From Escherichia coli (GTDB lineage: Bacteria > Pseudomonadota > Gammaproteobacteria > Enterobacterales > Enterobacteriaceae), in assembly GCF_013315695.1 (NCBI RefSeq), contig NZ_CP054353.1: 64,000 bases of DNA; one strand, 5' to 3'. Positions 557 through 11,433 of this stretch are shown here, piece by piece; the first letter of the stretch is position 1; every line of letters begins with the position of its first letter. The translations under genes and the position numbers were made by a program. Below the pieces are notes generated by a model. It ran no database searches, was not told the DNA's origin, and saw only the letters and a program-made list of their open reading frames with translations.

Positions 557-817
557 ATGCAATCACCATTACGGAATGTGCGTAAGGCGCACGGATTTAC
601 TTTGCAGCATGTTGCTGCGGGCGTTCAGGTCAATCCAGCGACGCTGAGTCGTATTGAAAGACTGGAACAAATTCCATCTATCGATCTTGCAGAACGTCTG
701 GCCAATTTTTTTAAGGGTGAAATCAGCGAAATGCAGATTCTTTATCCGGCACGTTTTCAATCTAGCCAAAACCAGAATGGGTTTAAACCACAGGAACAGG
801 AGGTAAGCCGTGGGTAA
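557..817 (+). CDS. Cro-like HTH (XRE family) regulator
   Basis: 86 aa; HTH motif FTLQHVAAGVQVNPATLSRIE; position and orientation opposite the repressor. Confidence 0.7.
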   Translation: MQSPLRNVRKAHGFTLQHVAAGVQVNPATLSRIERLEQIPSIDLAERLANFFKGEISEMQILYPARFQSSQNQNGFKPQEQEVSRG

Positions 818-1367
818 GCATCATTGGAAAGTGGAAAAACAGCCTGAGTGGTACGTGAAAGCTGTCAGAAAAACTATCGCGGCGTTGCCGGGGGGTTACG
901 CTGAAGCTGCTGAGTGGCTGGATGTAACAGAGAACGCATTATTCAACCGCCTTCGTGCAGATGGCGATCAGATTTTCCCGCTGGGATGGGCAATGGTTTT
1001 ACAGCGTGCGGCTGGCACTCACTACATTGCGGATGCTGTCGCACAGTCTGCTGGTGGGGTGTTCGTATCGCTTCCTGAAATTGAGGCAGTAGAGAACGCC
1101 GATATAAACCAGCGCCTGCTGGAAGTCATTGAACAGATCGGCAGTTATTCCAGACAGATTCGTTCAGCAATCGAAGACGGTGTAGTGGAACCGCATGAGA
1201 AGACAGCAATTAACGACGAACTGTATCTTTCAATTTCGAAGCTCCAGGAGCATGCAGCACTGGTCTACAAAATCTTCTGCGCTCCAGAAAAGAGTAACGC
1301 CCGCGAGTGTGCAGCTCCGGGCGTCGTGGCGTCGATTGCTTCTGGTTGTGGAGAAACTAACGCATGA
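810..1367 (+). CDS. Early-region hypothetical protein in the cII position (possible CII-like regulator)
   Basis: 185 aa ORF, GTG start overlapping cro stop, preceded by GGAGG; function inferred only from position. Confidence 0.45.
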   Translation: MGKHHWKVEKQPEWYVKAVRKTIAALPGGYAEAAEWLDVTENALFNRLRADGDQIFPLGWAMVLQRAAGTHYIADAVAQSAGGVFVSLPEIEAVENADINQRLLEVIEQIGSYSRQIRSAIEDGVVEPHEKTAINDELYLSISKLQEHAALVYKIFCAPEKSNARECAAPGVVASIASGCGETNA

Positions 1368-2509
1368 ATAGTTTAACGGCAAATAACCGTTTGTCGCAAC
1401 AGCTGGTGGTCAGCGTCGCTGAACACCTGTTGTTACGGCATGAATGCAGATTACCAAATCACCTGGCTGTAAGTAACCACAGAGAACTTTACCTGACTGT
1501 GGGGGGCGAGTTGTGCAGGAACTTAACCGCTGGTTTCGTGACGGAAGAGGGCTTTATGTCCATGTTATTCGTTGGGAGCCAGAAACACAGCGCGTTATCT
1601 ATCTTCGCAAAGACTACCCGCATGAGTGCTTTAGTCCTTTGTGGAAATTCAGGCGTGATTTTGTTGAGTGTGAAGGACCACCAGCATATTGATTCTGCAA
1701 TTCCGGGACGTTACACTGTTCAGGCACCTTATAAAGCGGGTGCCGGGATTGGCGTCCTGAAATTCGCACATGCGCATAACCGCGCTTCAGCGGTTTTTTT
1801 GCGCACGTTTCCTCACATCCAAATTATGGTGGGGCGTGCAGGGGCATCGAAAGATGCGCCGGGGTCATGTGCGACCGGTTACGCCAACCCTGTACGTCTC
1901 ACCACCTCTGTGATTGGCGTCCCATGTGGTGAGTTTTCAAAATTCGCACATGAGGATGTCACTATGGCAACCACCCCTACCCAAACTCACCCTAAAATTG
2001 ATGTTATCCATGGGAAGGCTGTTACCTCTTCTTTGGCCGTTGCCGAATATTTCTGCAAGCAGCACAAAAACGTTATTCAAAAAATCCAGACGCTTGAGTG
2101 CTCTGTTGAATTCACTGAGCTGAATTTTCAGCCCAGTGATTACACCGATTGCACAGGCCGCAAACTCCCTTGTTACCAAATCACCCGCGACGGTTTTGCG
2201 TTTCTTGCCATGGGCTTCACGGGGAAACGTGCTGCCCGGTTCAAAGAGGCATACATCAATGCCTTTAACCAGATGGAGAAACAGCTTTCAAATCCCTCTG
2301 TACTGAGCGACGTTGCACATAACGCCAGCGTTCTCTATTCCTACATTTCATCAATTCATCAGGTCTGGCTGCAGCAGCTTTATCCTATGTTGGCAAAAGC
2401 CGAATCTCCGCTGGCTGTTAGCTTGTATGACTATATTAATGATGCTTCGGCGCTGGCCTGCCTCATAAATTTGTCGCTGAATCCTTCAGAGGTAAGGGGG
2501 CGTAAATGA
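1364..2509 (+). CDS. Rha-family phage regulatory protein, copy 1 (Rha core from ATG 1964; N-terminal extent uncertain)
   Basis: C-terminal 180 aa carry Rha signatures (KIDVIHGKAVTSSLAVAEYFCKQHKNVIQKI ... FLAMGFTGKRAARFKEAYINAFNQME). ATGA overlap with upstream stop at 1364; internal ATG 1964 has a GAGGA RBS. Confidence 0.6.
   Translation: MNSLTANNRLSQQLVVSVAEHLLLRHECRLPNHLAVSNHRELYLTVGGELCRNLTAGFVTEEGFMSMLFVGSQKHSALSIFAKTTRMSALVLCGNSGVILLSVKDHQHIDSAIPGRYTVQAPYKAGAGIGVLKFAHAHNRASAVFLRTFPHIQIMVGRAGASKDAPGSCATGYANPVRLTTSVIGVPCGEFSKFAHEDVTMATTPTQTHPKIDVIHGKAVTSSLAVAEYFCKQHKNVIQKIQTLECSVEFTELNFQPSDYTDCTGRKLPCYQITRDGFAFLAMGFTGKRAARFKEAYINAFNQMEKQLSNPSVLSDVAHNASVLYSYISSIHQVWLQQLYPMLAKAESPLAVSLYDYINDASALACLINLSLNPSEVRGRK
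1513..1692 (+). CDS. Small hypothetical protein (59 aa, GTG start), paralog of ORF 3384..3608; overlaps the copy-1 Rha upstream frame
   Basis: Frame-1 translation VQELNRWFRDGRGLYVHVIRWEPETQRVIYLRKDYPHECFSPLWKF... looks protein-like and shows DNA and protein similarity to 3384..3608 (HVLRV...QKVI); GGGGGG RBS-like run before the GTG. Confidence 0.3.
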   Translation: MQELNRWFRDGRGLYVHVIRWEPETQRVIYLRKDYPHECFSPLWKFRRDFVECEGPPAY

Positions 2510-3387
2510 TCCGGAATATTTTCAAACTGTTTACCAATCGCCACCAGCATATTGATTCTGCAATTCCGGGACGTTACACTGTTCAGGCACCTTATAAAGC
2601 GGGTGCCGGGATTGGCGTCCTGAAATTGTCAACGGCGATGTATGACGCGCCAGCGTCTTTTTTATCGTCCGCATTTGCTCACATCCAGATTATGGTGGGC
2701 TGGGCGGGGGCACCGAAAGGTGCGCCGGTCTCCGTTGACGCCGGTTACGCCAACCCCGTCCAGTTCACCACCAGTGAAATTGGCGTTTCCGGTGGTGGAA
2801 GTTTTTCACTGTCAACGGAGGCTGCCATCATGGCTACGATCCCAGCCCTCACTCAACCTGAAATCACCATTGACAACGGCCAGGCCGTTACCACTTCTTT
2901 GGCTGTTGCCAACTTCTTCTCCAAGCGTCACGACGATGTGCTGAAAAAGATCCGCACTCTGGATTGTTCCCCTGAGTTTTGTGCCCGCAATTTTGCGGAG
3001 ACATCGATTTCGGTAAATCAACCGAACGGTGGTACACGCAAGCTCCTTTGCTATCAAATCACACGAGACGGTTTTGCGTTTCTTGCTATGGGTTTCACGG
3101 GTAAACGTGCTGCCCGGTTCAAAGAGGCATACATCAATGCCTTTAACCAGATGGAAAAACTGCTTTCAAAGCCATCCACGCTGAGCGATGCCGCAGATAA
3201 CGCCAGCGTGCTTTACTCCCACCTGTCGGTAATCCACAAGGTCTGGCTGCAGCAGCTTTATCCCATGTTGGCAAAAGCCGAATCCCCGCTGGCTGTAAGT
3301 CTGTATGACCGCATCAACGACGCGGCGCTACTGGCCAGTCTCATAAATTTGTCGCTGAACCCTTCAGAGGTAAGGGGGCGTAAATGA
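2506..3387 (+). CDS. Rha-family phage regulatory protein, copy 2 (tandem paralog)
   Basis: 293 aa; Rha motifs AVTTSLAVANFFSKRHDDVLKKIRTL and FLAMGFTGKRAARFKEAYINAFNQME; ATGA start overlapping the copy-1 stop. Confidence 0.7.
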   Translation: MIRNIFKLFTNRHQHIDSAIPGRYTVQAPYKAGAGIGVLKLSTAMYDAPASFLSSAFAHIQIMVGWAGAPKGAPVSVDAGYANPVQFTTSEIGVSGGGSFSLSTEAAIMATIPALTQPEITIDNGQAVTTSLAVANFFSKRHDDVLKKIRTLDCSPEFCARNFAETSISVNQPNGGTRKLLCYQITRDGFAFLAMGFTGKRAARFKEAYINAFNQMEKLLSKPSTLSDAADNASVLYSHLSVIHKVWLQQLYPMLAKAESPLAVSLYDRINDAALLASLINLSLNPSEVRGRK

Positions 3388-3608
3388 TCCGGAATATTTT
3401 CAAACGGTTTACCAATCATACTTTCCGTTGTCCTCGTCCGGGTCAGTGGTACACCACGCCTGCAGGGCATGTTCTACGTGTTAGCCTGGTTGACCGTGAA
3501 TGTCAGAAGGTGATTTGTGAACCGCTGGGCCGTAATTACCGCGTCAGTATGCCGCTTATAGCCTTTCGCTCCGGAAAAAACATGAAGCATCTCGGAGGTG
3601 CTGCATGA
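3384..3608 (+). CDS. Small hypothetical protein (74 aa) sharing its first 22 nt with the Rha copy-2 start
   Basis: Starts ATGATCCGGAATATTTTCAAAC, identical to 2506-2527; ATGA overlap with the Rha copy-2 stop and with the downstream replication gene start. Confidence 0.4.
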   Translation: MIRNIFKRFTNHTFRCPRPGQWYTTPAGHVLRVSLVDRECQKVICEPLGRNYRVSMPLIAFRSGKNMKHLGGAA

Positions 3609-4423
3609 GTATGGAGTTGATGGTTAAAGCGATGAAAATTCGAGTGGGAAATCCATTGCGAAAACTGGTTCTGATTAAGCTGGCTGATAATGCCAGCGAT
3701 CAGGGTGAGTGCTGGCCCAGCTACCAGCATATTGCTGACCAGTGCGAGATTAGCAAACGTTCTGTGATGAATCATATTGCGGCCCTTTGTGAGTCCGGGC
3801 TGGTAAAAAAAGTCACCCGGAAAGGTGAAAAAGGTAACTCAAGTAATATCTATCTCCTTCATCTTGATGGTGCAGGAGATTCACTAGGGGGTAGTGCAAA
3901 TAATTCACTATCTGGTGCAGCAAATTCACCAGGTAGTGCAGGAGTTGCACCAGGGGGTAGTGCAGGAGATTCACCCAGAACCAGTCACTCTTTTGAACCA
4001 GTCAAAGAACCAGTCAATGAACCAATAGCTGTTGGTGCATCTGCTGATGAGTCTGTGCGAGTTCGTTCAAACCGACCGGAATACTCTCCGGAGTTTGAGC
4101 AGGCATGGCTGGCCTATCCAAAACGTGCTGGTGGCAATTCAAAATCTGCAGCCTTCAAAGCCTGGAAAGCCCGTTTGAATGAGGGGGTAAACCCCGAAAC
4201 CATGCTGGAAGGTGTGAAACGCTACGCGGGCTGGGTATCTGCGATGGGTAACAGCGGCACACAATTTGTGAAACAGGCTGTCACGTTCTTTGGCCCGGAT
4301 CGTCATTTCGAAGAATCCTGGGAAGTTCCTGCGGTATCTGCAGTCAGACGCGAGGACCCGTACTTCAAAGCCAGTTACGACAACGTGGACTACAGCCAGA
4401 TCCCGGAAGGATTCAGGGGGTGA
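3605..4423 (+). CDS. Phage replication initiation / replisome-organizer-like protein with N-terminal winged HTH
   Basis: 272 aa; N-terminus MSMELMVKAMKIRVGNPLRKLVLIKLADNASDQGECWPSYQHIADQCEISKRSVMNHIAAL; internal iteron-like DNA repeats; position after the cII/rha block. Confidence 0.6.
   Translation: MSMELMVKAMKIRVGNPLRKLVLIKLADNASDQGECWPSYQHIADQCEISKRSVMNHIAALCESGLVKKVTRKGEKGNSSNIYLLHLDGAGDSLGGSANNSLSGAANSPGSAGVAPGGSAGDSPRTSHSFEPVKEPVNEPIAVGASADESVRVRSNRPEYSPEFEQAWLAYPKRAGGNSKSAAFKAWKARLNEGVNPETMLEGVKRYAGWVSAMGNSGTQFVKQAVTFFGPDRHFEESWEVPAVSAVRREDPYFKASYDNVDYSQIPEGFRG
3865..3985 (+). repeat. Iteron-like direct repeats inside the replication gene (candidate ori)
   Basis: Repeated motifs GGTGCAGGAGATTCAC (x2), AGGGGGTAGTGCA (x2), GGTGCAGCAAATTCACC, AGGTAGTGCAGGAG; encode a G/S/A-rich linker GGSANNSLSGAANSPGSAGVAPGGSAGDSP. 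Confidence 0.5.
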
Positions 4424-7261: not shown

Positions 7262-8257
7262 GTGACTGTGAGAGCACTACTGACCCCTGAAATTGCCCCG
7301 CGTATGGGGATCGTATTGTTCAGGCCAGGTTCAGAGCTGATGCCCCTGTTTATGCAGGGGCGTGTCCTGCTGGAGCCTGAGCCGGAGCGTTATTCATCTT
7401 TCGCCAGTGGTGCCGTTCCGGCGGCATCACAACCGCTGGCGGATGATCCTGCCGTTCGGGCCGTGTTCCGCCATGAGGCAGTGATCCGTCGTGCTGGTGG
7501 CGTGGAATGTCTTGAAAGCTGGTTACTTCGTGAAAAAGGCTGCCAGTGGCCTCATTCCGGATGGCACAGCGAGAACATGACCACAATGCGACACGCTCCG
7601 GGTGCAATCCGTCTGTGCTGGCACTGCGATAACCAGCTGCGCGATCAGTTCACGGAACGGCTGGAATCAATGGCAACGGATAACTGTGCCCGCTGGGTGT
7701 TGTCTGTTGTGCGTCGGGATCTCGGTTTTGATGACAGTCACGTTGTGACAATGCCGGAACTGTGCTGGTGGCTGATTCGTAATGACCTGGCGGATGCCTT
7801 ACCGGAAAGTGCAGCCCGTAAGGCACTGAGATTACCGAAGCCTGTTGTGCCGTCTGTCACCCGGGAAAGTGACCTTGTGCCTTCGGTTCCTGCCACCAGC
7901 ATCATCCAGGATAAAGCGAAAAAGGTGCTGGCGCTGAAAGTGGATCCGGAGTCGCCGGAGTCTTTTATGTTACGCCCCAAACGTCGCCGCTGGGTTAATG
8001 AAAAGTACACGCGCTGGGTTAAGACGCAGCCGTGTGCATGTTGTGGAAAGCCTGCTGATGATCCCCACCACCTGATAGGCCACGGTCAGGGGGGAATGGG
8101 TACAAAAGCGCATGACCTCTTCGTGCTGCCTTTGTGCAGAAAGCATCACGACGAGCTGCATGCGGATACCGTGGCATTTGAAGAGAAGTATGGCTCCCAG
8201 CTGGAGCTGATATTTCGTTTTATCGATCGTGCGCTGGCAATAGGCGTGCTGGCCTGA
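7262..8257 (+). CDS. DUF968-family prophage protein (YdfU-like) with C-terminal Cys/His cluster
   Basis: 331 aa; C-terminal ...TQPCACCGKPADDPHHLIGHGQGGMGTKAHDLFVLPLCRKHHDELH; common in Rac/Qin-type nin regions. Confidence 0.6.
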   Translation: MTVRALLTPEIAPRMGIVLFRPGSELMPLFMQGRVLLEPEPERYSSFASGAVPAASQPLADDPAVRAVFRHEAVIRRAGGVECLESWLLREKGCQWPHSGWHSENMTTMRHAPGAIRLCWHCDNQLRDQFTERLESMATDNCARWVLSVVRRDLGFDDSHVVTMPELCWWLIRNDLADALPESAARKALRLPKPVVPSVTRESDLVPSVPATSIIQDKAKKVLALKVDPESPESFMLRPKRRRWVNEKYTRWVKTQPCACCGKPADDPHHLIGHGQGGMGTKAHDLFVLPLCRKHHDELHADTVAFEEKYGSQLELIFRFIDRALAIGVLA

Positions 8258-8274
8258 TTTTGTGGAGAAAGTTG

Positions 8275-8646
8275 ATGCGTGATATTCAAATGGTTCTTGA
8301 ACGTTGGGGGGCATGGGTGGCAAATAATCACGAGGATGTGGAATGGTCATCTGTTGCTGCAGGTTTTAAGGGATTAATTCCTTCGAAAGTAAAATCCCGC
8401 CCGCAATGTAGCGATGACGATGGCCTGATCATTAGCTCTGCGATGACAGTTCTTAAGAAAAAGGAACCGTATCAATACGAATTACTGGAAATGTATTATG
8501 TGTATGGGGTTACATTACGGGTGTTGGGGGTAAAACTGGGGATATCACTTAATCAGGTTGTTATCAGACTGCAGAAAGCTGAAGGGTTTATTGACGGTTG
8601 TCTGGCAATGTTGGGGGTATCTTTAGAAATTGATTGTTACATATAG
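8275..8646 (+). CDS. Late-gene antiterminator Q (QuuD-like)
   Basis: N-terminus MRDIQMVLERWGAWVANNHEDVEWSS matches the QuuD/DLP12-type Q family; sits directly upstream of the late region; GGAG RBS before ATG 8275. Confidence 0.75.
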   Translation: MRDIQMVLERWGAWVANNHEDVEWSSVAAGFKGLIPSKVKSRPQCSDDDGLIISSAMTVLKKKEPYQYELLEMYYVYGVTLRVLGVKLGISLNQVVIRLQKAEGFIDGCLAMLGVSLEIDCYI

Positions 8647-8721
8647 TAATAAATTCAATCAAAGTAAATAATCATATTTTATTATAACCTCCTGATGATA
8701 CCTGTTCATTGGGAGGTTATT

Positions 8722-9339
8722 ATGGATAAAAATGTAGAGCATGTATTAGTTGATGCAATTGAAAATAAGCAATCTTTAACAGTCGTTTACTTAGGAGGGA
8801 GCCAGCCCGGAACATTAAGGAATATTTCTCCGATTAGTATAAATGGGGATAAATTGCGGGCAAGATGCCATAGTTCTGGAGCAGTAAAGGTTTTCAATCT
8901 TGGGAAAATACAGTTACCCAGTGACTCCTGCGCGGTATCTATGCACTATGGAGATTTAGAAGTTAAAGCTTATGAGACGATGCAGAGCGTAAATGACAAC
9001 TTTCATGCCCTTTATCCTGAAGGACGATGGGGTGTTGATTTTAATGAGCATCGCTTTGCTTTATTTGATTTTTTTAAAAACGGGAAACGAAAAAAAACGG
9101 CATTTATGGCAATTGAGTTCAGGGAAAGAGATGAAGAGAAAATAATAACAGGTGTAACAATTGATATTGGTATATCTGGAACAGTGATTTCTGAGAAGTC
9201 CCGAATCCCAAAAAGACGACCATGGGTAGTGGTTGGTCCCGAACACGGAGAATACAGTACTTATTCAACTTTGGACAAGGCTGCTACAGCGTTTTTTGAG
9301 AGGCTTTCGTTGATAGCATCCGGCCTGGAAGATAATTGA
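8722..9339 (+). CDS. Hypothetical moron protein (205 aa), unknown function, AT-rich
   Basis: Strong RBS GGGAGG 5 nt before ATG 8722; no recognisable motif, no signal peptide; followed by a terminator; lies between Q and the tRNA block. Confidence 0.6.
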   Translation: MDKNVEHVLVDAIENKQSLTVVYLGGSQPGTLRNISPISINGDKLRARCHSSGAVKVFNLGKIQLPSDSCAVSMHYGDLEVKAYETMQSVNDNFHALYPEGRWGVDFNEHRFALFDFFKNGKRKKTAFMAIEFRERDEEKIITGVTIDIGISGTVISEKSRIPKRRPWVVVGPEHGEYSTYSTLDKAATAFFERLSLIASGLEDN

Positions 9340-10691: not shown

Positions 10692-10767
10692 GGCCCTTTA
10701 GCTCAGTGGTGAGAGCGAGCGATTCATAATCGCCAGGTCGCTGGTTCAAATCCAGCAAGGGCCACCA
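10692..10767 (+). tRNA. ileZ: tRNA-Ile2 (anticodon CAU, ileX/ileZ-like)
   Basis: 76 nt cloverleaf GGCCCTT...AAGGGCC-A-CCA; anticodon loop TTCATAA; close to the E. coli ileX sequence. Confidence 0.8.
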
Positions 10768-10774
10768 TCACATA

Positions 10775-10851
10775 CCGCCATTAGCTCATCAGGATAGAGC
10801 GCCAGCCTTCGAAGCTGGTTGCGCGGGGTTCGAGTCCTCGATGGCGGTCCA
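10775..10851 (+). tRNA. argN: tRNA-Arg (anticodon UCG)
   Basis: 77 nt; acceptor CCGCCAT/ATGGCGG; anticodon stem-loop CCAGC-CTTCGAA-GCTGG; T-loop GGTTCGAGTCC; 3' CCA. Confidence 0.8.
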
Positions 10852-10864
10852 TTATCTGTACCCT

Positions 10865-10941
10865 GCGTTATTAGCTCAGCCGGACAGAGCAATTGCCTTC
10901 TAAGCAATCGGTCACTGGTTCGAATCCAGTACAACGCGCCA
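10865..10941 (+). tRNA. argO: tRNA-Arg (anticodon UCU)
   Basis: 77 nt; anticodon loop CCTTCTAAG; T-loop GGTTCGAATCC; 3' GCCA; one acceptor-stem mismatch. Confidence 0.8.
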
Positions 10942-10952
10942 GACTTATTTTT

Positions 10953-10980
10953 CCCGGCTCGCTTTTGCGGGCTTTTTTTT
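10953..10980 (+). terminator. Terminator-like hairpin plus T8 after the tRNA cluster
   Basis: GCTCGC-TTTT-GCGGGC followed by TTTTTTTT. Confidence 0.45.
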
Positions 10981-11433
10981 AAATGTCTCACAATTCAGAC
11001 GGTTGACAGTTGTCTGTTTTGCGGGGAGTTTGTTAAAAGAAACTGGCATGGTGAATCCCCCTGTGCGGAGGGGCAATCAGCAACTGGTGTTTTGTCACCG
11101 ACCCTTATCCTTTCTGTGCGGGTTCAGGTGCTGATACTGAACTCACCGGGAGGCACCCGGCATCATGTGCATGATGATACAGATACGCGGCTTTAGCCCC
11201 TCTCCGGAGGGGCTTTCTTGTGGGCAAAAAAAAGCCCGAGTGGGTTCGGGCAACAGCATGAGATATACATTTTTATAATCGAATGGATTTTAACCAGAAT
11301 TCATAAGGCTGCGCAACTGCGCGGTCTTTTTCGAATTGCGGGCTGTCGTCTCTCTTCTGCCATTGTCCTGTAACTTCCGGACTTCAGCCCGCTCCTTATT
11401 TTACTCACAATATTATCCCGGCCGGGAGGATTC

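Follow-up and report, generated by a model that had tools for sequence, protein, structure and literature searches.

Introduction

Two genes of the Rha family stand head-to-tail in a lambdoid prophage, in the part of its early rightward operon that separates ymfL (a cII-like gene) from an O-like replication gene. Each lies behind a conserved leader that is open in the frame of the gene that follows it. The question raised by this locus is what these leaders encode, and how two such units came to lie side by side. The locus is carried on a stretch of 64,000 nucleotides (nt) of Escherichia coli DNA (NCBI RefSeq assembly GCF_013315695.1, contig NZ_CP054353.1), which we refer to, in its full length, as the window. 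An initial annotation, made from the letters and a list of open reading frames (ORFs), had taken the leaders to be translated and the locus to be a duplicated, partly deleted module. Here we present evidence that each leader is a known phage RNA switch, composed of an IsrK/seqA-like RNA and a C4/CI antisense RNA, and not a conserved protein. We consider it likely that the locus consists of two complete RNA immunity modules of the P4/P1 type, heterotypic in specificity, set in a frame that is kept open for transit and brought together by recombination.

Results

Each leader carries two phage RNA elements

A covariance-model scan returned four Rfam matches over the gathering score within the two leaders, an isrK and a C4 element in each:

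1724..1800, + strand: IsrK/P4-seqA-like RNA 1 (RF01394, 62.3 bits against a gathering score of 50)
2587..2663, + strand: IsrK/seqA-like RNA 2 (RF01394, 62.2 bits against a gathering score of 50)
1822..1909, + strand: C4/P4-CI-type antisense RNA 1 (RF01695, 75.1 bits against a gathering score of 45)
2688..2775, + strand: C4/CI-type antisense RNA 2 (RF01695, 81.4 bits against a gathering score of 45)

These elements account both for the conservation of the leader and for its internal terminators. The leaders, whose conservation had been recognised at the outset, are 100% identical over 86 nt (1679-1764 and 2542-2627), and the terminator-like hairpins with T-runs that had been pointed out within them, at 1778-1795 and 2644-2657, can be identified from the placement of the isrK matches as the IsrK terminators; a terminator scan likewise found a Rho-independent terminator at the end of both isrK elements. 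The initial annotation had thus picked out the right features, while missing two known RNA elements and their targets. Upstream of its terminator IsrK-1 contains the segments a1 (1749-1755) and b1 (1764-1772), and IsrK-2 the corresponding a1 (2612-2618) and b1 (2628-2635). C4-1 has its b' loop at 1865-1874 (UCAUGUGCGA), its a' segment at 1881-1887 and an AUG at 1826 in the leader frame, while in C4-2 the b' loop lies at 2730-2739 (CUCCGUUGAC), a' at 2747-2753 and the AUG, again in the leader frame, at 2692.

The form of C4, a long closing helix around two hairpins, is backed by covariation. Both copies fold with a z-score of -5.1, and the 22 positions at which they differ comprise five compensatory pairs (10 positions), one change from G-C to G-U, eight positions in the b' loop and three in the flanks, with no broken pair among them. 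The same constraint extends to relatives, which we sampled as 120 viral contigs having a 16-mer in common with C4: in a gap-free alignment of 31 distinct sequences, 837/837 pair cells were standard and 14 pairs had changed on both sides, as against 31-50% standard pairs in slid controls.

A pair of promoter-like hexamers precedes each isrK element, identical in the two modules:

1689..1717, + strand: putative internal promoter of module 1 (TTGATT at 1689-1694, 17-nt spacer, TACACT at 1712-1717; RNA 5' end at about 1724)
2552..2580, + strand: putative internal promoter of module 2 (TTGATT at 2552-2557, TACACT at 2575-2580)

Their position relative to the RNA 5' end matches that of promoter-like hexamers upstream in P4 and in a Gifsy-1-like locus, and by this position both modules may have weak internal promoter activity. 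By analogy with P1, P4 and Gifsy-1, C4 would presumably be processed from read-through transcripts.

Antisense loops match the targets of their own module

Downstream of each C4 element lies a region in which its a' and b' segments find complements:

1914..1963, + strand: target region 1 (a2 at 1914-1920; b2 at 1944-1953, overlapping the Shine-Dalgarno sequence GAGGA at 1952-1956)
2780..2829, + strand: target region 2 (a2 at 2780-2786; b2 at 2811-2820, overlapping the Shine-Dalgarno sequence GGAGG at 2817-2821)

The C4-1 loop has an exact 10-nt complement at 1944-1953, at the GAGGA site 7 nt upstream of the ATG at 1964, and is also complementary to 1764-1772 in IsrK-1; the C4-2 loop has an exact 10-nt complement at 2811-2820, over the GGAGG upstream of the ATG at 2830, and is also complementary to 2628-2635 in IsrK-2. 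Each b' loop matches the b1 segment of its own isrK element over 8-9 nt, and the segment ACGCCAA (a'), common to both modules, opposes UUGGCGU in the IsrK hairpin and again just 3' of C4 (the a1 and a2 7-mers). The resulting layout of a1b1, C4 and a2b2 is that of P1 immI. An exact-complement search revealed no cross-match of 8 nt or more between the modules, the longest match at the other module's site being at most 4 nt. Since the b' loops and the b1/b2 targets differ between the modules and match within a module only, the two switches should be orthogonal. Loop specificity was assessed throughout by this search; RNAduplex applied to whole C4 elements was uninformative, as the C4 stem melts and own and foreign energies come out similar.

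The same relationship holds among the fetched loci, which comprise 37 distinct loop types: the match of a loop to its own b2 averaged 8.3 nt, compared with 4.4 nt for cross-matches, and in 37/37 types the best own-loop match was found a short way before an ATG, 65-79 nt past the search anchor. Because own-loop matches occupy this position, the regulated genes are likely to be the short forms of Rha, with likely starts at ATG 1964 and ATG 2830:

1964..2509, + strand: Rha-1 short form, 181 amino acids (aa) (Pfam Phage_pRha, PF09669, 6e-32; TIGR02681, 114.3 bits against a cut-off of 45.95)
2830..3387, + strand: Rha-2 short form, 185 aa (TIGR02681, 84.2 bits against a cut-off of 45.95; PHROGs)

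Rha domains are present in both, in agreement with the earlier reading of two head-to-tail Rha-family genes ending at 2509 and 3387. The two proteins share 71% aa identity, with a ratio of non-synonymous to synonymous substitution rates (dN/dS) of 0.23, and the start MAT..P is common to Rha-1, P4 kil and other cargo genes.

The leader frame is kept open without constraint on its amino acids

Both short Rha forms are nested in frame within longer ORFs, which overlap or adjoin two small ones:

1364..2509, + strand: long ORF 1, 381 aa (from the ORF list), an eta-like 'transit' ORF with an ATGA start
2506..3387, + strand: long ORF 2, 293 aa (from the ORF list), starting at an ATGA overlap with the Rha-1 stop
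1513..1692, + strand: 59-aa DUF4222 gene (PF13973, 1e-13; phrog_1343, 2e-36; RefSeq WP_001379286.1)
3384..3608, + strand: 74-aa ORF (phrog_1153, 4e-45), joined by ATGA overlaps to Rha-2 on its 5' side and the O-like gene on its 3' side

The gene boundaries are therefore layered, as had been suspected, each unit holding a short Rha form nested in a long ORF. Long ORF 1 runs in one frame across the DUF4222 gene, the putative internal promoter, isrK, C4, the target sites and Rha-1, and long ORF 2 consists of 12 codons of the 74-aa ORF continued, without a shift of frame, by the leader of module 2. The 59-aa ORF, which had been noted to overlap the leader in another frame, belongs to a conserved family and is a real gene overprinted in long ORF 1, in which third codon positions vary more (14.2) than the other two (3.3 and 2.6); its stop, TGA at 1690-1692, overlaps the putative -35 of module 1.

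The initial annotation had cited synonymous changes between the leader copies as a sign of translation. This argument fails in a codon-aware comparison of the two copies, which finds 21 synonymous differences against 48 non-synonymous ones in the leader frame, with a dN/dS of 0.86 over the promoter and IsrK and 0.67 from C4 to the Rha AUG, compared with the 0.23 of Rha itself. Nor did we find any three-base periodicity of variability in the leader across 27 related sequences, the three codon positions being equal. The frame is nonetheless kept free of stops. Within the loop-length class of the window copies, the leader frame is without a stop in every unique related cassette; the two alternative frames are interrupted in most of them. 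Among 29 gap-free sequences, the two alternative frames contained 18 and 17 polymorphic stop columns and that of the leader 0, and a column-shuffle null gave a mean of 12.4 such columns, with 0/1000 shuffles as low as the leader frame. The length variants upstream of C4 (50, 77, 80, 119 and 125 nt) all leave the same remainder when divided by 3. Further upstream, over 1364-1723, 25 distinct homologues, among them a group at 84% identity with a 6-nt indel, show 0 stops in the leader frame and 11 and 4-7 in its two alternatives. The leader frame is thus selected to stay open, not to encode a particular peptide, and it is probably crossed by ribosomes on transcripts from an upstream promoter, like eta of P4. 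What stands of the original suggestion that the leader is translated is that its frame is stop-free and probably traversed; purifying selection on its amino-acid sequence does not accompany this.

The correspondence with P4 (NC_001609) is close. Rfam models of C4 and isrK are known to detect relatives of CI and seqA (PMC10111431), and in P4 they match the CI region at 8420-8507 and the seqA region at 8615-8692, respectively, in the same order as in the window. The P4 immunity region comprises PLE, seqA, the CI RNA, seqC and the nested genes eta and kil. P4 eta is an ORF of 199 codons whose ATG at 8767 overlaps the orf88 stop (ATGA) and which continues through the promoter, seqA, CI and the target, and kil (65 aa, MATTLTPSHPE...) is nested in frame within it, as the short Rha forms are within the long ORFs of the window; the units of the window are thus versions of this design with Rha as cargo, ORF381 and ORF293 each answering to eta and the short Rha forms to kil. 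According to PMC10111431, which summarises Forti et al. 1999, CI is encoded within eta and Kil is a truncated Eta; in the published scheme a constitutive promoter inside the region is the source of the immunity RNA, and termination is prevented when the long form is translated from a promoter further upstream. The window differs from P4 in its cargo (a 181- or 185-aa Rha winged-helix protein in place of the 65-aa Kil), in its setting (the early operon of a lambdoid prophage, with cro, ymfL ... O, in place of a satellite), and in having a DUF4222 gene overprinted in long ORF 1, two tandem modules, and b2 lying right on the Rha Shine-Dalgarno sequence.

An alternative is that the leader does not code for protein at all: the short Rha forms alone would be real, and the long ORFs would be by-products of a conserved, G+C-rich RNA and of annotation habit. 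The RNA elements would account for conservation on this alternative as well, good Shine-Dalgarno sequences precede the short starts, loop-length classes 45-48 do not keep the frame, and internal-promoter transcripts of P4 and Gifsy-1 start inside the long ORF (PMC10111431, PMC4825925). We regard this alternative as unlikely, given the 17-18 polymorphic stop columns that arise in the other frames and are absent from this one, length variants that differ by multiples of three only, and the ATGA coupling of starts, seen in the window, again where the two modules were joined, and also in P4, where full-length Eta is reported to be translated from the upstream promoter (PMC10111431).

Less probable still, and in our view very unlikely, is that Rha begins with a conserved and translated protein domain, Pfam 'Ash', encoded by the leader, and that the locus is a duplicated, partly deleted coding module. 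A Phage_ASH (PF10554) match does cover aa 117-211 of the 381-aa ORF (nt 1712-1996, 4.8e-14), several PHROG profiles take in the leader, RefSeq and GenBank both give the long forms, and the frame is free of stops. The span of the match, however, is exactly that of the RNA cassette. The dN/dS values of 0.67-0.86 and the absence of codon periodicity offer no sign of purifying selection on the Ash amino-acid sequence, all differences between the C4 copies are accounted for by RNA pairing, loop or flank changes, and the 'domain' covers a putative promoter, a terminated RNA (a small RNA, or sRNA, in the Gifsy-1 homologue) and an antisense RNA. The same Pfam model also matches the conceptual 137-aa 'cI gene product' ORF lying over the CI RNA of P4 (8e-16), and the P4 immunity factor is described as an RNA (PMC4825925, PMC10111431). 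Pfam Ash appears, then, to be a conceptual translation of the RNA cassette.

The P4 RefSeq record (L125) still carries a 'cI gene product' coding sequence at 8168-8584 on the - strand, named 'transcriptional repressor'. An identity of Ash with P4 epsilon, stated in PMC8628076, where PF10554 served as the epsilon profile, was considered and ruled out: epsilon (7888-8175, - strand) matches PF25738 'Derepression', and PF10554 matches the CI-overlapping ORF. By these results, the PF10554 profile would detect the adjacent CI/eta region and not epsilon.

Origin of the two-module array

The two units are bounded by an exact repeat, and a change of parentage falls shortly after its first copy:

2483..2527 and 3361..3405, + strand: 45-nt exact repeat (Rha 3' end, ATGA overlap and first codons of the 74-aa ORF)
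2539..2541, no strand assigned: recombination joint, from a parent-A-like phage (module 1) to a parent-B-like phage (module 2)

The identical sequence noted earlier behind both Rha genes is a 39-mer, exact at 2489 and 3367, which takes in the stop codon of Rha together with the ATG start of the ORF behind it, overlapping as ATGA at 2506 and at 3384, and whose identity extends to the full 45 nt. Window positions 1300-2539 are 98.3% identical to a single-copy locus (L004), and positions 2541-3700 are 97-98% identical to other single-copy loci (L008, L074), whereas the two halves share only about 76-84% identity with each other. At the joint, which reads TTTACCAATC, then G, then CCACCAGCAT, codon 12 of the 74-aa ORF passes in frame into the 3' end of a DUF4222 gene that lay upstream of module 2; no clear homology was seen at the joint. 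Since the halves resemble single-copy loci more than each other, the array is the product of illegitimate, in-frame recombination between two heterologous phages with one module each, and not of local duplication and decay. The earlier description of a duplicated and partly deleted module holds in that the units are tandem, diverged and marked by a recombination scar at about 2539-2541; a fusion of two heterologous phage modules describes it better. That a single module was duplicated in tandem at this site and its copies then diverged, a reading for which the head-to-tail order, the 45-nt repeat at both unit ends and the 86-nt identity of promoter and isrK 5' part could be cited, is most improbable given that each half is so much closer to a single-copy locus than to its neighbour, that the 86-nt block is conserved family-wide, and that the module-2 type is paired with three other partner types elsewhere.

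Comparison with the rha loci of related phages (mEp460, SfV-like, cdtI, Stx2a/2c, ST64B and the O104:H4 prophage) is in line with this origin. These phages have the order ymfL, DUF4222, cassette, Rha, 74-aa ORF and O, with one module at 80-98% identity where the window has two of different specificity; single-copy loci at 97-98% identity exist for either window half, each with one module. The exact array, at 100% coverage and identity, occurs in at least 6/5,426 complete E. coli genomes, and also in one IMG/VR contig (L115) that is 99.7% identical to the window. Eight of the fetched loci carry two to three C4 copies on the same strand (L016, L025, L026, L046, L055, L079 with three, L099 and L115). 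The loops within scored arrays differ, with matches of 7-10 nt to their own target and 3-5 nt to the neighbour's, in a scoring that omits the last module of L026 and of L079 and does not treat L115 separately from the window. The module-2 type (loop TCTCCGTTGACG) teams with three other partner types in other contigs, and heterotypic arrays recur among viral contigs.

In L079, three same-strand C4 elements lie about 385 nt apart at 1195-2056, and the first two loops differ and match their own targets only.

Comparison with P1 and Gifsy-1

In the immI region of P1 and P7, as reportedly described by Citron and Schuster in 1990, the order is a1b1, C4, a2b2 and gene, and the loops are said to pair with a target at the ribosome-binding site. 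Differences in specificity underlie heteroimmunity. In P1, C4 blocks the small gene icd, whose translation is needed for ant transcription, whereas no icd-like ORF is found between C4 and Rha in the window, where b2 lies directly on the Rha Shine-Dalgarno sequence. The Rfam c4-a1b1 model reached 21.6 bits in the window, under its threshold of 46.7, while isrK was over threshold. The likeness to P1/P7 immI also draws on the descriptions of Rfam RF01695 and RF03163.

For Gifsy-1 of Salmonella, both the IsrK sRNA and STnc1160, a processed RNA some 80 nt long, have been shown to be present in vivo; the ORF from the C4 AUG is translated, and IsrK activates the antirepressor-like anrP in trans (PMC4825925). 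The isrK, orf45 (STnc1160) and anrP of Gifsy-1 resemble the window in that IsrK has a terminator, the position of C4 downstream is occupied by that processed RNA and the cargo resembles an antirepressor, and the published pairing G28/G31-C162/C159 appears to fall at the a1 and a' positions, counted from the RNA 5' end. Two Gifsy-like loci (L089, L118) are present among the recovered relatives. Gifsy-1 differs in that a separate ORF of 45 codons starts at the C4 AUG and is translationally coupled to anrP, whereas in the window the frame of the C4 AUG runs into Rha; the loop of hairpin 2 is shorter (45-nt class), the leader frame is not open upstream, and the locus lies outside an early operon.

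A model for the two-module locus and the evidence against it

We propose that in a lysogen the b' loop and a' segment of each C4 RNA would pair with b2 and a2, leaving Rha untranslated. IsrK/seqA, which bears the same sites, may modulate this control, either as a P4-like aid to termination or as an anti-antisense activator of the Gifsy-1 kind. If the locus works as P4 eta/kil does, ribosomes in the long ORF would traverse the terminator, C4 and the target on RNA that was started at the upstream promoter; this transit translation would avert termination and polarity on the replication genes, and an N-terminally extended Rha would be produced. Promoter activity, C4 processing, the translational repression of Rha, the way in which IsrK acts, the passage of ribosomes from the upstream operon through the long ORFs and the function of Rha are all inferred.

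Several points weigh against the reading of the locus as two RNA immunity modules in a transit frame. The locus is known here from sequence alone, and its expression steps are deduced. The isrK fold taken by itself has weak thermodynamic support (z-scores of -1.2 and -1.7), and a promoter consensus scan of 1300-3700 called none, the putative internal promoter agreeing with the consensus at 8/12 positions. The first 50 codons of long ORF 1 (1364-1512) have no clear coding signature in any frame, with a variability by codon position of 6.6 / 11.0 / 12.6, although the frame is still open there and begins with an ATGA start at ymfL. Long ORF 1 must, moreover, overlap the real DUF4222 gene in another frame, which is unusual. 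The small cargo gene lies out of the leader frame in eight related loci, so that fusion with the cargo is not universal, and in other loop-length classes (45-48, for example Gifsy-1-like) the frame is not kept. Rha, finally, is a winged-helix regulator or antirepressor-like protein whose biochemical role, as antirepressor or otherwise, is likewise deduced. These points leave the two-module reading likely in our judgement.

In the eight loci with an out-of-frame cargo (L024, L031, L041, L048, L053, L060, L066 and L069), an Icd/Kil-like gene of 64-81 aa (MAT(T)TPTQ...) lies just 3' of C4 with its ATG one base off the leader frame, which itself continues for 167-416 codons through the next genes. 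In-frame fusion of leader and cargo as a universal feature was ruled out on account of these loci.

Neighbouring genes and other features of the window

The window starts in the prophage immunity region, with a leftward repressor gene followed by a cro-like gene (557-817) and a ymfL/CII-like gene (810-1367). Two genes flank the modules:

810..1367, + strand: YmfL/CII-like gene (phrog_101 CII-like, 3e-73; RefSeq label ymfL), with a stop that overlaps the ATG at 1364 (ATGA)
3605..4423, + strand: O-like replication initiator gene, labelled replication protein in mEp460 and related phages, with an ATGA overlap at 3605

Four ATGA overlaps (1364, 2506, 3384 and 3605) chain the ORFs from ymfL to the O-like gene, which is the downstream end of this translationally coupled chain. 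The 74-aa ORF within it is conserved, with 40 database relatives; the ORF itself matched no Pfam family, DUF4222 included, and none is attached to it in any of these relatives. The initial annotation had proposed the 59-aa and 74-aa ORFs to be paralogous, a relationship we find unsupported: BLASTP aligned them at 26% identity over 43 aa (E 0.024), hhalign gave a probability of 26% with locus-derived alignments and of 1.1% (E 0.048) with deeper ones, they belong to different PHROGs, and DUF4222 is matched by the 59-aa ORF only.

In the annotation of the locus by the Prokaryotic Genome Annotation Pipeline (PGAP) in RefSeq E. coli genomes (L003, L004), the long Rha forms are given, the first of them shortened to an internal ATG at window position 1622, which cuts its overlap with DUF4222. 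DUF4222 is annotated by PGAP in some genomes only, and isrK and C4 are in neither the L003 nor the L004 annotation.

A third near-copy (93%) of the 15-mer with which the units start (GCCACCAGCATATTG, at 1677 and 2540) occurs at 3720-3734 inside the O-like gene, probably by chance. Further into this gene, positions 3890-4024 hold short tandem repeats of 21-24 nt and 12 nt that encode a Gly/Ser/Ala-rich linker and that may serve as origin iterons, as in lambda O; they also gave a spurious Rfam match to mir-875. Elsewhere in the window, three tRNA genes (Met, Arg-UCG and Arg-UCU) followed by STnc100 (11017-11225, + strand) and an AsxR-type sRNA (11229-11281, - strand) occupy positions 10692-11281, a layout typical of the late-promoter region in Stx-like lambdoid phages. 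An OrzO-P antitoxin RNA of the zor-orz family of type I toxin-antitoxin systems lies at 52220-52295 (- strand, 98.9 bits), remote from the Rha modules.

Discussion

The locus is a known system, the RNA immunity of P4, P1 and Gifsy-1, in an uncommon arrangement of two modules and two specificities; the mechanism is not new. With this identification the gene boundaries are settled, each unit consisting of a transit ORF and a short Rha form, with two intervening small RNAs that RefSeq leaves unannotated here.

More broadly, we suggest that prophages assemble arrays of two to three such modules with orthogonal specificities, each module guarding a different regulator or antirepressor gene, within a transit frame that is selected only to stay open and that lets ribosomes arriving from the operon upstream override the switch and shield the replication genes behind it from termination. 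This generalisation is tentative, and we would give its failure a slightly better chance than its success. If it is true, the Ash domain and many 'Ash-Rha' annotations would be read-outs of an RNA element, and arrays would provide several independent channels of immunity or induction in a single prophage.

The widely propagated annotation of Ash and 'Ash-Rha' would reflect the RNA cassette, which bears on how phage regulatory regions are annotated; in the 'Eru' types of Stx phages, the Ash domain is given as of unknown function (PMC8951638). The 37 co-varying types of loop and target found in a small sample amount to a collection of mutually orthogonal antisense switches supplied by nature. 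From the heterotypic arrays it would seem that immunity or antirepressor specificities can be stacked within one prophage, which would bear on prophage cross-talk and on the induction of toxin-converting phages.

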